The notes beneath the pieces were generated by a model, which was not told the origin of the DNA, did no database searches, and saw only the letters and a program-made list of their open reading frames with translations. Shown one piece after another: positions 2,290 through 60,338 of a stretch of DNA of 64,000 bases. Origin of the DNA: a phage; sequence record PZ452581.1. The stretch is one strand, 5' to 3'. Every line of letters starts with the position of its first letter. Position 1 is the first letter of the stretch. Both the position numbers and the translations under genes were made by a program.

Positions 2290-2359
2290 TTTTATTCTCC
2301 GAGATGTTTAATTGCGGTACAAGTATATAATATCATATCCTGTACCAAAGTAAACTATT

Positions 2360-2728
2360 TTATGCAACTTTAATCCAATTATCTAAATTTAATTCACCTT
2401 TGGCTTTCATTTTTTCAATCAAGAGGTCAGCGGTAATACGACCATTTTGATACCACGTAACATCTTCAGAGTAACCAGTTTCTTTATCTTCATAAGTCTC
2501 GCAGCGAATTTTACCAAGAATCAAAGTTTTTAATTCGTATGTATCTCCAGTAAAAAAGTTAGTTAACATTATTTTCCAAGAGAAATCATCAGAAGGACCT
2601 TCAGGAGTCATACAATCTACGAATTCAAATTGTTCTTTGTATAAGTGCCACTGAAGTTCTTTAGTTTCGATAGCTTTATAGCCGTCGTGATCTTTACCTT
2701 TGATGTATGAGTTAAGATTGATTTTCAT
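2360..2728 (-). CDS. hypothetical early protein
   Basis: 122-aa ORF; early-promoter-like motif at 2780-2785 upstream. Confidence 0.55.
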   Translation of the reverse strand: MKINLNSYIKGKDHDGYKAIETKELQWHLYKEQFEFVDCMTPEGPSDDFSWKIMLTNFFTGDTYELKTLILGKIRCETYEDKETGYSEDVTWYQNGRITADLLIEKMKAKGELNLDNWIKVA

Positions 2729-2805
2729 TTTATTCTCCTTTGTTTGTGTAAGATAATACTATCACAAAGGAACCATACTGTAAACAACTTTGTGCAATCT
2801 TTGGA

Positions 2806-2833
2806 AAATAAAAAAGGACTCCCGAAGGAGTCC
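2806..2833 (-). terminator. intrinsic terminator (GGACTCC-UUCG-GGAGTCC stem-loop plus U-run)
   Basis: Perfect 7-bp stem with tetraloop at 2816-2833, A-run on plus strand 2806-2815 (U-run on minus transcript), 5 nt after stop of basic-protein ORF. Confidence 0.7.
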
Positions 2834-2838
2834 TCAAC

Positions 2839-3015
2839 TTATGCTTTCTGCTTACCAAAACGAGAAGCATCATCTCGAAGAACCGCACGTGCTCGGCGCA
2901 TGATCTTCTCAACAGTTTGATTGATACGAGAGTTCGACCCACGCTTGTAACCAGCGCGTTTAGAATCACCAACTTTCTTTTCAACTGCTTTCTTTGCTTT
3001 AGCTTGTTTTGCCAT
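2839..3015 (-). CDS. small lysine/arginine-rich basic protein (about 58 aa; alternative start at 3057)
   Basis: Track ORF 2839-3057; internal ATG at 3015 gives MAKQAKAKKAVEKK...; followed by intrinsic terminator. Confidence 0.5.
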   Translation of the reverse strand: MAKQAKAKKAVEKKVGDSKRAGYKRGSNSRINQTVEKIMRRARAVLRDDASRFGKQKA

Positions 3016-3134
3016 TATAAATTCTCTTTTAAATGAAAATGCAGGACTTATTGGCATTGCCTGCGAAAGCCCTCAAGGGGTACTTAGGTTTTGAATATTT
3101 ACCGACAGGATAACCATAAACCTCGTCAACATAA

Positions 3135-32653: not shown

Positions 32654-33310
32654 ATGGCAGCACCTAGAATATCATTTTCGCCCTCTGATATTCTATTTGG
32701 TGTTCTAGATCGCTTGTTCAAAGATAATGCTACCGGGAAGGTTCTTGCTTCCCGAGTAGCTGTCGTAATTCTTTTGTTTATGATGGCGATTGTTTGGTAT
32801 AGGGGAGATAGTTTCTTTGAGTACTATAAGCAATCAAAGTATGAAACATACAGTGAAATTATTGAAAAGGAAAGAAATGCACGCTTTGAATCTGTCGCCC
32901 TGGAACAACTCCAGATAGTTCATATATCATCTGAGGCAGACTTTAGTGCGGTGTATTCTTTCCGCCCTAAAAACTTAAACTATTTTGTTGATATTATAGC
33001 ATACGAAGGAAGATTACCTTCAACAATAACTGAAAAATCACTTGGAGGATATCCTGTTGATAAAACTATGGATGAATATACAGTTCATTTAAATGGACGT
33101 CATTATTATTCCAACTCAAAATTTGCTTTTTTACCAACTAAAAAGCCTACTCCCGAAATAAACTACATGTACAGTTGTCCATATTTTAATTTGGATAATA
33201 TCTATGCTGGAACGATAACCATGTACTGGTATAGAAATGATCATATAAGTAATGACCGCCTTGAATCAATATGTGCTCAGGCGGCCAGAATATTAGGAAG
33301 GGCTAAATAA
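32654..33310 (+). CDS. t: holin / lysis-inhibition sensor
   Basis: 218 aa; N-terminal TM segment; recognised as T4 T holin. Confidence 0.9.
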   Translation: MAAPRISFSPSDILFGVLDRLFKDNATGKVLASRVAVVILLFMMAIVWYRGDSFFEYYKQSKYETYSEIIEKERNARFESVALEQLQIVHISSEADFSAVYSFRPKNLNYFVDIIAYEGRLPSTITEKSLGGYPVDKTMDEYTVHLNGRHYYSNSKFAFLPTKKPTPEINYMYSCPYFNLDNIYAGTITMYWYRNDHISNDRLESICAQAARILGRAK

Positions 33311-56960: not shown

Positions 56961-57170
56961 TTAAATTACATGATTATTTATAATAAATTCTCGCGGAACG
57001 TTAAAATATCCGATTTTAGTTAATATAACAACATCACCATTAATAATTACCGGAGAATAATCTTCTGAAGCATTAAATTTCCAATGGGCTCTAATATTAT
57101 ATCCATCAGAACCAAATGCTCGACTAGCCGGTCTCCCGGCTTTTTGCCATGCATAAAAATCAAATTTCAT
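56961..57170 (-). CDS. hypothetical protein (soc.1-like)
   Basis: 69 aa. Confidence 0.5.
   Translation of the reverse strand: MKFDFYAWQKAGRPASRAFGSDGYNIRAHWKFNASEDYSPVIINGDVVILTKIGYFNVPREFIINNHVI
56975..56982 (-). promoter_or_regulatory. late promoter TATAAATA for soc
   Basis: Exact TATAAATA on minus strand about 30 nt upstream of soc ATG. Confidence 0.6.
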
Positions 57171-57370
57171 TTTGAATGCTCTATAATTAATTTTAAGGCT
57201 TCTTCACGCACCAACTTGTCTAATGGTATATGCCCAGTTTTAATTGTGTAAGCTTTGTGGAGCTGATTAGATAAGAGCTCGTATGTGAGCTCTTTGTCAT
57301 AATCTTTAAATAGCTGGTCAATACGTTTCTTGCGGGCTTTCTTAAGCTGGCGTTTATTTAAACGAGCCAT
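57167..57370 (-). CDS. hypothetical basic protein (soc.2-like)
   Basis: 67 aa. Confidence 0.5.
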   Translation of the reverse strand: MARLNKRQLKKARKKRIDQLFKDYDKELTYELLSNQLHKAYTIKTGHIPLDKLVREEALKLIIEHSK

Positions 57371-57888
57371 TAATAGCCTCTGTCTTGACGAGCGAAGTTT
57401 TCAGCATTTTTCAGATAATAAAGTTTAAATATTTCTTCAGCTGACATTCCAAGAGCAATAAATTTATTCATGAAAAAGTGAAATTGGTCAATCAGTTCAA
57501 ATTTAATTTCAAGCTGATCTTCAGGAGATAAGTCTTGAATTTTCTTGGATTGCATTTCAGAATAACGTTTCTTCCAAGGTTTCCATACAGCAGAAGCTTC
57601 TTTTTCACCATTACTCATACCACCAAGAGAAGTATATAGCTCGCGAGTTTCGTCTGCGATATAATCGTCTTGGTTTCGCAGCCAAGCAAGAACTTCTCCT
57701 GCAGTTTCAAGTGAATCAGGATGACGATTTGTTTCTGGTTTATCATTAGCCAAACGAATCTGTAAATGCCGCTGCATGTCAAGCATAACCTGCAATGGGT
57801 CAATACTGTGCATAATATACTCAGCATATGCACGATTTGCTTTATCAACACCTTCGATCAAATGAGCACATTCATTAAAGTGAGCCAT
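57370..57888 (-). CDS. 56: dCTPase/dUTPase (MazG-like dCTP pyrophosphatase)
   Basis: Internal ATG at 57888 with AAAGGAAA Shine-Dalgarno gives 172 aa starting MAHFNECAHLIEG; track ORF extends to 57981. Confidence 0.9.
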   Translation of the reverse strand: MAHFNECAHLIEGVDKANRAYAEYIMHSIDPLQVMLDMQRHLQIRLANDKPETNRHPDSLETAGEVLAWLRNQDDYIADETRELYTSLGGMSNGEKEASAVWKPWKKRYSEMQSKKIQDLSPEDQLEIKFELIDQFHFFMNKFIALGMSAEEIFKLYYLKNAENFARQDRGY

Positions 57889-57959
57889 TATTTTTCCTTT
57901 CAATTCATGGGTTAGTAGATTAATTATACAATAAATATATAAAGCAATAAGGAGGACAT

Positions 57960-58160
57960 ATGGTACAAAAATTAATGGCACTTGTTAATGCCATAAAAGG
58001 TAATAAAAAACGTATAGCTTTTACTATTTCTGCTATGGTAGGAATTTTACTCTGGAACTTTATTTTATCACCAATTGCAATTGCGCATGGTGTTAATATT
58101 CCAGTAGTTACTCTTGATACATTCGTAGATCTAGCATTTGCTTTAGTTGGGTTAATTTAA
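57960..58160 (+). CDS. antisense small membrane protein (66 aa)
   Basis: Strong AAGGAGG Shine-Dalgarno 5 nt before ATG; two hydrophobic segments; fills the 56-61 gap; stop overlaps gene 61 stop. Confidence 0.5.
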   Translation: MVQKLMALVNAIKGNKKRIAFTISAMVGILLWNFILSPIAIAHGVNIPVVTLDTFVDLAFALVGLI

Positions 58161-59185
58161 ATCTTAGCATATTTAGATAGCCGCATTTTAGCCATCAACC
58201 CCTGGGCAATATTATTTTTCATATATTCCATAATTTGTTCAGGGGTTGCACCTTCCTTTCTAATCATATCATTGACATCTTTTGATTTCCAGGGAGATTT
58301 ATCCCAAAACATAACCCTTTCTCCTGCATCAACTAATTTAGTCATTCGCTTAATAGTGTCAGGATGACGAGGTTCATTATCTAAAACCCACACACGTCTA
58401 TCTTTAAATGGAACAACTTCTAGGTCTAATTGACCACCCGTAATAGCTATACCATTTTCAATAAAAAGTGAATCTATAGGTCCTTCTAGAACATATACAT
58501 CACCATCTTTAACTCGTTCGACTCCATAGATTTTTGTTGCTTCAGGATAAGCTTTGATGGTGATATATTTTTGGGGAGCATCTTTCTTTAATGCACGTCC
58601 TTGAAAAGACTCAGCTTTTCCATTAGCATTATAAATTGGAATAACAAGACGAGGCTCAGGTATTTCCTTTTTATATGTTCCCGGTGCTATGCTATTAACT
58701 AATTTAGGCCATTCAGTTGTAAACCAAAGATATTTCCATTTATCCTTTGGAATACAACGAGCTTTTACATATTTTATAATTGCATGGTCTTCCGCCAGTT
58801 TATCTAATCGAACACATGACGGAAGAGATTTAATTATTTTCTTCTCAGGTTGTTTAGGAAGTTCTTTAGGTTTTTCTACTGGACGACTTTTACCTTTTTC
58901 TTTTCTTATTTCAAAGATATACTCACGATATAAATCAGGTTCAAACTCCTTTAAATATATTCCGATTGGTGCATGATAGTTACAGTTATAACAATGAATA
59001 TTTCCTTCATTATTATCACCATAATACCATCCACGAGCTTTATTCTGGTCGGTTTTTGAATCTCCACAAACAGGACATCTAAACCGTAATTTAAAAGTTG
59101 AACTATTATTTACTTGTGTGAATTTAGGTAAATGAGCTAATGCACGGTATGCAAACTCATTATCAATCCAAGGTATTGATGACAT
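58157..59185 (-). CDS. 61: DNA primase
   Basis: 342 aa; zinc ribbon CPVCGDS...HCYNC and TOPRIM motif EGPIDSLF. Confidence 0.9.
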   Translation of the reverse strand: MSSIPWIDNEFAYRALAHLPKFTQVNNSSTFKLRFRCPVCGDSKTDQNKARGWYYGDNNEGNIHCYNCNYHAPIGIYLKEFEPDLYREYIFEIRKEKGKSRPVEKPKELPKQPEKKIIKSLPSCVRLDKLAEDHAIIKYVKARCIPKDKWKYLWFTTEWPKLVNSIAPGTYKKEIPEPRLVIPIYNANGKAESFQGRALKKDAPQKYITIKAYPEATKIYGVERVKDGDVYVLEGPIDSLFIENGIAITGGQLDLEVVPFKDRRVWVLDNEPRHPDTIKRMTKLVDAGERVMFWDKSPWKSKDVNDMIRKEGATPEQIMEYMKNNIAQGLMAKMRLSKYAKI

Positions 59186-59352: not shown

Positions 59353-59398
59353 ATTAACCTCTATTCATAAAAGCATTAAAAATTTGGTCATCAATAGA
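59350..59398 (-). repeat. 49-bp junction-cassette direct repeat, copy 1
   Basis: CATATTAACCTCTATTCATAAAAGCATTAAAAATTTGGTCATCAATAGA; second copy at 59708-59756 with 1 mismatch. Confidence 0.8.
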
Positions 59399-59710
59399 TG
59401 GAATAGCAACCTTTTCGGCATCATTTAGCAAATCATTAATTTCATCAGATAGCATAACACATGTGCCTTTATTTCCTGTAATTGTTACTGCACAATTACG
59501 AACGTTTTCTTTATCAAAATTTAGGTTAATATTTTCGTAGTGAAAATCCTTTAATGCCGAATATATCTTTAAAATGAAATTGTCTTTTACTACAATAAAC
59601 CCAACTTCACTATTAAAACGTGGTTCATGGAAACTATAATAAACCTTTTCATCTATAAAATCGTATGAAATTTTTTCCATTTTTAAATATGAAAATTCAG
59701 AACTATACAT
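59354..59710 (-). CDS. hypothetical protein (61.x family, shared C-terminal tail)
   Basis: 118 aa ending SIDDQIFNAFMNRG. Confidence 0.55.
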   Translation of the reverse strand: MYSSEFSYLKMEKISYDFIDEKVYYSFHEPRFNSEVGFIVVKDNFILKIYSALKDFHYENINLNFDKENVRNCAVTITGNKGTCVMLSDEINDLLNDAEKVAIPSIDDQIFNAFMNRG

Positions 59711-59756
59711 ATTAACCTTTATTCATAAAAGCATTAAAAATTTGGTCATCAATAGA
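59708..59756 (-). repeat. 49-bp junction-cassette direct repeat, copy 2
   Basis: See copy 1. Confidence 0.8.
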
Positions 59757-60338
59757 AACATTTACTTTAGACTGTTTTTCTGATGGTAATTCATATCCAC
59801 ATATTACAATTTTGTAATCAATATCAAAATACACAGAAGCAATATGATTAATGATGTTTTCAGTAAAGTCTAAATCAACGTCAATATCTTTTTGACCACA
59901 GCCCAAAGGATAAATAATGCGAGTAATTCGATTATCTTTAACAAATATTCCACCGACATACTCTGTGCTGCGTTTAAAGTCTACACGCCGACGAAATGAA
60001 AAATATTCAGGCTCTCTATGAGCTCGGCTCATAGGACACAACGAGTAACTAGAATAAGAGATGTCAAATCCTACGCCTTCGATATGAGCCATAGTGTCAT
60101 GATTAAACCAATTATAATCGTACGCCAAATCCATTAGATTATAATATGTAAAAGACACCGGATTAACATCATTAGTCACAAGCATGTAATTAGCAACTGC
60201 TATAATTTCATTGTTTTTAACGAATACAAACCGTGATTGATGCGAATGACCTGGACCCGCGTTTTCACGATTAATGATATAACACTGGGCACTTTTATAT
60301 TTGTATGTATCTTTGCACTTGTGCATTTGATAGAGCAT
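59712..60338 (-). CDS. hypothetical protein (61.x family, two-module paralogue)
   Basis: 208 aa ending SIDDQIFNAFMNKG; internal FVKDN/IVVKDN modules. Confidence 0.55.
   Translation of the reverse strand: MLYQMHKCKDTYKYKSAQCYIINRENAGPGHSHQSRFVFVKNNEIIAVANYMLVTNDVNPVSFTYYNLMDLAYDYNWFNHDTMAHIEGVGFDISYSSYSLCPMSRAHREPEYFSFRRRVDFKRSTEYVGGIFVKDNRITRIIYPLGCGQKDIDVDLDFTENIINHIASVYFDIDYKIVICGYELPSEKQSKVNVSIDDQIFNAFMNKG

Follow-up and report, generated by a model that had tools for sequence, protein, structure and literature searches.

What is encoded in the short gap between gene 56 (dCTPase/dUTPase) and gene 61 (DNA primase), where T4-type phages carry early and middle genes on one strand, is the question raised by a phage DNA of 64,000 nucleotides (sequence record PZ452581.1; the whole stretch is called the window here, and positions are counted from its first letter). 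A previous sequence-only reading of the window had described the interval 57889-58160 as a gap of about 270 bp filled by one plus-strand open reading frame (ORF) of 66 amino acids, which runs against the surrounding genes, is preceded by a strong AAGGAGG Shine-Dalgarno sequence and ends in a convergent overlap with the primase stop codon. This description was borne out: the gap measures 268 bp and is occupied by that single ORF behind an upstream spacer of 71 bp, the surrounding early and middle genes lie on the minus strand, and the stop codons of the ORF and of the primase gene share four bases. The features of the locus are as follows.

57370-57888, minus strand: gene 56 (dCTPase/dUTPase), flanking gene
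57923-57949, minus strand: candidate MotA-dependent middle promoter for gene 56, sequence read directly
57930-57937, plus strand: candidate gp55-type late promoter box AATAAATA, which differs from TATAAATA as the A(-13) variant and precedes the ATG of the 66-residue ORF by 22 nt
57949-57955, plus strand: Shine-Dalgarno sequence AAGGAGG, 4 nt upstream of this ATG
57960-58160, plus strand: ORF of 66 codons plus stop (ATG at 57960, TAA at 58158-58160), a member of PHROG 2024
57965-57994, minus strand: terminator-like hairpin, ATGGCATT-AACA-AAGTGCCAT followed by TAATTTTTGT, within codons 2-12 of the ORF
58157-58160: TTAA in which the two stop codons overlap, each of them TAA (plus strand for the ORF, minus strand for the primase gene)
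58157-59185, minus strand: gene 61 (DNA primase), flanking gene, convergent on the ORF

Comparison with related phages indicates that the ORF, the translation of which is MVQKLMALVNAIKGNKKRIAFTISAMVGILLWNFILSPIAIAHGVNIPVVTLDTFVDLAFALVGLI, is almost certainly a real protein-coding gene. Within Tequatrovirus and Mosigvirus, dN/dS values of 0.1-0.2 were obtained by the Nei-Gojobori method, and between genera pN was about 0.32 as compared to a pS of 0.6-0.75. The sites of the ORF that vary within a genus are distributed over the first, second and third codon positions as 25, 6 and 35 (chi-square p=5e-5). The start codon and the length of the ORF are conserved throughout the genera compared, and a GGAG(G) ribosome-binding motif is kept at the same position in every genus examined. 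By these substitution patterns, the frame is under purifying selection. The 4-base TTAA overlap with the primase gene likewise occurs in T4, Mosigvirus, Dhakavirus and Gelderlandvirus and with the second of two paralogues in Gaprivervirus.

The gene is not new, since PHROG 2024 and "hypothetical protein" entries in hundreds of phage records already catalogue it. The window belongs to a Tequatrovirus; the 1.1 kb around the ORF share 99.5% identity with Escherichia phage KIT03 and 98% with RB18 as well as with numerous further Tequatrovirus genomes. The KIT03 copy, hypothetical protein KMC15_gp033 (YP_010071509.1), has the same position and orientation and is 100% identical at the protein level, and the same gene is present in RB55 (RB55_p033) and fPS-65 (g034). 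The gene order in KIT03 is soc, soc.1, soc.2, 56, the ORF, 61, 61.1, 61.2, 61.2, sp, 61.4, dmd, 41. The two adjoining minus-strand genes of the window that are both named 61.2 in KIT03 (59354-59710 and 59712-60338; 118 and 208 aa) share the terminal motif SIDDQIFNAFMN(R/K)G and represent a tandem partial duplication; 61.2 is presumably the anti-ToxIN gene tifA.

PHROG 2024, a family annotated as of unknown function, was matched by the ORF protein with E=1.5e-31 over residues 2-66 (profile positions 1-65 of 65), and the homologues from Mosigvirus, Gapriver-B, Dhakavirus and Gelderlandvirus fall into the same PHROG with E values of 1e-24 to 1e-28. A tblastn search matched the ORF in 693 phage records, 687 of which cover at least 80% of the query. 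Identities of at least 90% were found in about 503 records; since this equals the number of records (about 502) that hold a primase of at least 95% identity, the ORF is kept intact in essentially every Tequatrovirus record. Homologues of 45-56% identity occupy the same genomic place in Mosigvirus and Gaprivervirus; those of Dhakavirus and Gelderlandvirus, again at the same place, have diverged to 18-27% identity and still belong to PHROG 2024. Profile searches added family members from Klebsiella, Salmonella and Citrobacter phages. Apart from members of the family, a phmmer search against 1.84 billion representatives returned only three long repeat proteins (P0032, P0036, P0037), which were dismissed as compositional artefacts, P0032 and P0036 being long tandem-repeat proteins. 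Sequence searches of Pfam, NCBIfam and the PDB with the ORF protein gave nothing above noise.

A location between genes 56 and 61 on the opposite strand was found in KIT03, T4, fPS-65, ST0, DK-13, IME281 and STML-198, and positional homologues with this arrangement are present in at least five genera of the Tevenvirinae. The position is kept whichever neighbour has been inserted, be it dam (T4, fPS-65) or a homing endonuclease gene (DK-13). In fPS-65, dam and a further ORF stand between gene 56 and the small ORF. The endonuclease gene of DK-13 (L007, 2372-3121) separates the small ORF from the primase gene, so that the overlap is broken and the ORF undisturbed. Some Gapriverviruses carry two tandem paralogues (2495-2692 and 2701-2901 in L014; also in L015 and L018). 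The second of these (MGTLFYQIWKL...) is the orthologue of the single copy of Dhakavirus and of the Klebsiella phages, and it is this paralogue that holds the TTAA overlap with the primase gene. At the paralogue site of TH40 (L006) there is a 118-bp gap, which may be a remnant of the second paralogue.

T4 itself holds the same ORF between dam and 61, with 97% amino acid identity (98.5% in one T4 clone). It sits in a 309-bp stretch that is devoid of annotation in NC_000866 and AF158101; a re-annotated T4 clone labels it as a hypothetical protein. The sequence-only reading had named identity with an already annotated T4 segment as an outcome that would speak against its proposal. Near-identity with T4 is indeed observed, whereas the annotation is absent from the T4 reference, although hundreds of relatives list the segment as "hypothetical protein". 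Few viruses have been studied as thoroughly as T4, and still its reference records are blank over the 309-bp interval of a conserved gene; adding the ORF to the T4 annotation would allow existing RNA-seq, proteomic and CRISPRi data to be re-read. A literature search for a T4 transcript, a ribosome footprint or a name of this ORF found none. In a T4 dRNA-seq preprint, 150 phage start sites are counted, 22 of which are antisense (bioRxiv 10.1101/2024.04.04.588121).

The same earlier reading had placed dam and gene 69 in this interval of T4. The former does lie between 56 and 61 in T4; gene 69, which we take to be the former name of segF, was misplaced, as segF is located on the other side of gene 56 from the ORF. 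Of the two genes on either side of gene 56 in T4, dam and segF, the window phage has neither; soc.1 and soc.2 are present in their stead (window positions 56961-57370 and 57889-57959 were compared with 1107-1781 and 2347-3126 of the T4 sequence L004). The idea that the ORF is a stand-in for dam and gene 69 was discarded, as dam and this ORF occur together in T4. The sequence AATTATACAAT precedes dam in T4 and gene 56 in the window phage, so that gain or loss of the cassette by recombination between similar promoter sequences is possible. The mutant T4 clone T4_583L (L023, 151,790 bp) shows, at about positions 1500-1700, a 2-nt deletion at codon 22-23 of the ORF and the loss of 4 nt from the stretch that links ribosome-binding site and ATG, besides a truncated dam; either the ORF is dispensable in the laboratory, or the deletions are sequencing errors in dinucleotide repeats.

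As to the expression of the ORF, the sequence-only reading had pointed to a near-late-promoter sequence just upstream, and the box AATAAATA is present at 57930-57937, 22 nt before the ATG. Thirty-two of 50 T4 late promoters listed are exactly TATAAATA, and the commonest variant, A(-13), which corresponds to AATAAATA, accounts for nine of the 50 sites (PMC2988020). Early and middle transcripts of T4 are all on the other strand and late transcripts may be on either (PMC2988020); a plus-strand gene at the position of the ORF should therefore be late. In the 64-kb window, a T/A-ATAAATA box with a ribosome-binding site and an ATG in the next 35 nt stands only ahead of gp34, gp36, t, soc and the ORF; genes 34 and 36 code for tail fibres, and t, the holin gene, shares the AATAAATA form of the box with the ORF, at a distance of 18 nt from its own ATG. 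The ATAAATA core is kept in Tequatrovirus, Mosigvirus, Gaprivervirus and Dhakavirus while the flanks diverge: the box upstream of the ORF or its homologue reads GATAAATA in T4, AATAAATA in Mosigvirus and Dhakavirus and CATAAATA in Gaprivervirus, base -13 differing between genera (A, G, C). The Gelderlandvirus box, ATTAAATA, is weaker and has two mismatches. On the plus strand of the window, AATAAATA was observed four times as compared to about seven occurrences expected from composition. We are fairly confident on these grounds that a late promoter precedes the ORF. Over the whole window and both strands, TATAAATA and AATAAATA occur five and six times, respectively, while about 15 occurrences would be expected for each, and this scarcity of late-box octamers is consistent with selection against stray late promoters.

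The predicted protein starts with a basic region, residues 1-18 comprising five Lys/Arg and no acidic residue, and contains two hydrophobic stretches, residues 19-42 and 49-66. The summed insertion energy of the 19-mer from residue 19 is +0.4 kcal/mol (-2.4 to +3.6 in homologues), and no segment other than residues 19-42 has a favourable insertion energy in all subfamilies. For the last 15-18 residues of the protein, in contrast, the values are +4 to +12 kcal/mol; this segment contains Asp, Glu or His and is thus not a conserved second transmembrane helix. The two hydrophobic segments of the sequence-only reading are thus real in this sequence, whereas the second of them does not hold as a conserved membrane-spanning element. 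An AlphaFold model based on a 24-sequence alignment (mean pLDDT 80) predicts helices at residues 2-12, 16-42 and 52-62, so that the protein may be divided into a basic N-terminal helix (2-12), a transmembrane helix (about 16/19-42), a loop HGVNIP and a short acidic amphipathic C-terminal helix (52-62). Across 24 diverse sequences, four residues never change, namely W32, N33 and P38, which belong to the transmembrane helix, and G44, which closely follows it; near-invariance was seen for P48 and G64. The positive-inside rule would place the N-terminus in the cytoplasm and the 24-residue tail in the periplasm, and a single-pass protein with its N-terminus in and its C-terminus out is moderately favoured by hydropathy, this rule and a monomer model with a pTM of 0.53. 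Foldseek searches of the model against BFVD and the PDB returned only family members or noise.

Taken together, the best explanation of the locus, and in our view a probable one, is a genuine phage gene for a late 66-residue single-pass micro-protein of the inner membrane. The gene would be transcribed late by the gp55/gp33/gp45-RNA polymerase from the AATAAATA box, with a start that we infer at about 57943, equivalent to about 17722 of T4 NC_000866, and translated efficiently from AAGGAGG. The basic N-terminus of the product would stay cytoplasmic, residues 19-42 would cross the membrane once, and the acidic tail of 24 residues, consisting of HGVNIP and the amphipathic helix, would face the periplasm. 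Since the only invariant residues are the Trp-Asn pair and the Pro in the transmembrane helix and the Gly just outside, the protein most likely works by helix-helix association within the membrane, be it self-association or contact with a membrane protein of phage or host, rather than as an enzyme or a soluble binder.

As neither homology nor fold connects the protein to a characterised one, its function has to be guessed from these properties. We tentatively suggest that it might modulate the late envelope and lysis-timing programme. That it represents an undiscovered part of T-even envelope control, which either adjusts the lysis-inhibition clock of holin T, RI and RIII via an Asn-mediated transmembrane contact or acts as a processed periplasmic peptide, is rather doubtful. 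Should the ORF prove to influence the timing of lysis, exclusion or the host range, a classic system would gain a further component, which could matter when therapeutic T4-like phages are chosen. For the time being, the ORF product joins the many hypothetical small membrane proteins, and its residual interest lies in its absence from the T4 reference annotation.

Several other functions were considered. A late factor for superinfection exclusion, protection of receptor or envelope, or anti-defence, which would keep out the DNA of incoming phages, protect against lysis from without or counteract an abortive-infection effector of the host that acts on the membrane, would agree with a membrane micro-protein that has a conserved polar Asn in its transmembrane helix, with the restriction of the family to Tevenvirinae of enterobacteria, and with a location in the hyperplastic early region, in which sp is found at a distance of about 2 kb. 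The paralogues and the divergence of the family are moreover compatible with an arms-race gene; dN/dS, however, is low and not elevated. The exclusion genes imm and sp act early, and imm and ac are early genes. Known T4 exclusion genes such as the sp of the window lie on the early strand, and PHROG and Pfam searches linked the ORF to no such family. We therefore regard this role as unlikely.

Alternatively, the protein could be a secreted peptide, residues 1-42 serving as a long Sec signal peptide that is cut by signal peptidase I after P38-I-A40-I-A42 to release the 24-residue acidic amphipathic peptide HGVNIPVVTLDTFVDLAFALVGLI into the periplasm. The n-region is basic, the Pro at -5 and the G at +2 of the presumed site are invariant, and the residues at -3 (A; L in Mosigvirus) and -1 (A, T or S across the family) are all allowed by the -3/-1 rule. 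However, an n-region of 18 residues is unusually long, the hydrophobic region of 19-24 residues resembles an anchor and is long for a cleaved signal, and the invariant W32-N33 pair would be unexpected in a disposable signal peptide, so that such processing seems improbable.

The sequence-only reading had proposed a holin-like role, and a holin, pinholin or viroporin that oligomerises into a membrane lesion and thereby sets or assists lysis might be suspected from the small size and hydrophobicity of the protein, the Asn in its transmembrane helix and the AATAAATA late box that it shares with t. One orthologue is even named "Holin" in UniProt, but this is an unreviewed label and not evidence. 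Of four holin characteristics tested, the ORF protein shows one, being a small membrane protein with at least one predicted transmembrane domain; a charged C-terminus, a relation by family or fold, and the holin role or lysis cassette of the genome are not found. Its C-terminus (...DLAFALVGLI) is not a highly charged hydrophilic tail and no basic residue follows R18, the charge residing at the N-terminus, and since the second hydrophobic segment is not suited to span the membrane in the family as a whole, one credible membrane-spanning segment is left. Holin families of Pfam and PHROG gave no match, and the fold search returned only members of the family itself. The ORF is flanked by the primase and dCTPase genes, no lysis gene adjoining. 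A T-type holin is already encoded in the window at 32654-33310 (phrog_860, E=5e-107). On the features tested, the proposal does not hold, and we consider a holin function very improbable.

An antisense regulator of 56 and 61 expression had been the other role put forward from the sequence, and here the elements on the opposite strand have to be considered. The candidate promoter of gene 56 was called with the MotA box consensus: a MotA-box-like TTATTGCTTTA (TGCTTTA) is the reverse complement of 57940-57950, and a perfect -10 element TATAAT, the reverse complement of 57923-57928, follows on the minus strand after an 11-nt spacer. The MotA box of T4 middle promoters is centred at -30 (PMC6024815). 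The annotation of fPS-65 also predicts a middle promoter upstream of 56, and the promoter in the window is the equivalent of the T4 promoter upstream of 56 beside oriA. The plus-strand late box falls inside the 11-nt spacer, so that the divergent promoters share about 28 bp; at 57923-57950, late and minus-strand promoters of different temporal classes thus form a compact divergent arrangement in this dam-less phage. In Gaprivervirus and Dhakavirus, the late box is located beyond the MotA-like box instead, and in Mosigvirus no -10 element was identified.

The minus-strand hairpin is situated about 165 nt beyond the primase stop codon, with a T-run after the stem 57994-57975, and fPS-65 annotates it, inside the ORF, as a terminator. 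For T4-type phages, cassette boundaries made up of a stem-loop plus an early promoter have been described, and the succession of hairpin and promoter at this locus resembles them. One terminator-like hairpin was found where 0.6 would be expected, and it is present only in Tequatrovirus; a minus-strand terminator was therefore rejected as the reason for the conservation of the interval.

If RNA were the main level of action, the late transcript would be antisense to 61 and shut down primase synthesis late, its divergent promoter would interfere with transcription of gene 56 and of oriA, and the ORF would be secondary. The position of the late box inside the spacer of the gene 56 promoter could be read in this sense. 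Besides, a scan of about 4.5 kb beyond the ORF revealed no terminator-like site on the plus strand, so that late transcription could continue in antisense through gene 61, and T4 has several sites at which transcription uses one strand at one time and the other at another (PMC2988020). Selection, however, acts in a pattern that points to the protein, the coding overlap with gene 61 amounts to only 4 nt, and the gene is kept where a homing endonuclease parts the ORF from the primase gene or dam parts it from 56. An Rfam search of the ORF region gave no match and its RNA fold, with a z-score of -0.82, is no better than that of shuffled sequence, on which basis a structured or catalogued RNA was rejected. 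Nothing specific speaks for the antisense proposal, and a main function at the RNA level appears highly improbable to us, although late read-through into gene 61 is possible as a side effect. That there is no gene at all, the interval being a 3' UTR with a terminator hairpin and a minus-strand promoter and the open frame accidental, could appeal to the hairpin at 57994-57975, the promoter-like elements of the minus strand and the blank T4 reference records, but is extremely improbable and already effectively refuted by the comparative data, as the hairpin is absent outside Tequatrovirus and no more frequent than by chance, while frame, start, ribosome-binding site and length are kept in other genera at 23-55% amino acid identity with a coding substitution pattern.

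A late single-pass membrane micro-protein, as preferred here, invites comparison with several known phage proteins. Protein E of phiX174, a single-gene lysis protein, has a transmembrane helix with an essential proline and binds a membrane enzyme of the host. The ORF protein is like it in its predicted single transmembrane helix, and the conserved Trp-Asn pair and Pro point to a specific helix-helix contact and not to a generic anchor; the two are not homologous, T4-type phages have a complete holin-endolysin-spanin system, and the likeness is one of concept only. S68 of phage 21, a representative of the class II holins or pinholins, has about 70 residues and two transmembrane domains. The size and the two hydrophobic stretches of the present sequence are similar, but in the family the second stretch is not fit to cross the membrane, the charged end of the ORF protein is the N-terminus and not the C-terminus, and the proteins are not homologous. 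With Sp (61.3), Imm and Ac, the ORF protein has in common that small envelope proteins are encoded among replication genes, the sp gene being situated about 2 kb away, albeit on the minus, early strand, whereas the ORF is on the plus strand.

A further comparison is with the lysis proteins of T4 itself, namely holin T and the antiholins RI and RIII. Unlike these, the ORF protein has no match to a holin PHROG, Pfam family or fold and no globular periplasmic domain, and we know of no genetic r phenotype that has been mapped at its locus. It resembles them in being a small protein with a predicted location in the inner membrane, in its probable late expression as suggested by a AATAAATA box like that before t, and in its genomic setting, as the lysis genes of T4 are likewise scattered over the genome and not assembled in a cassette.
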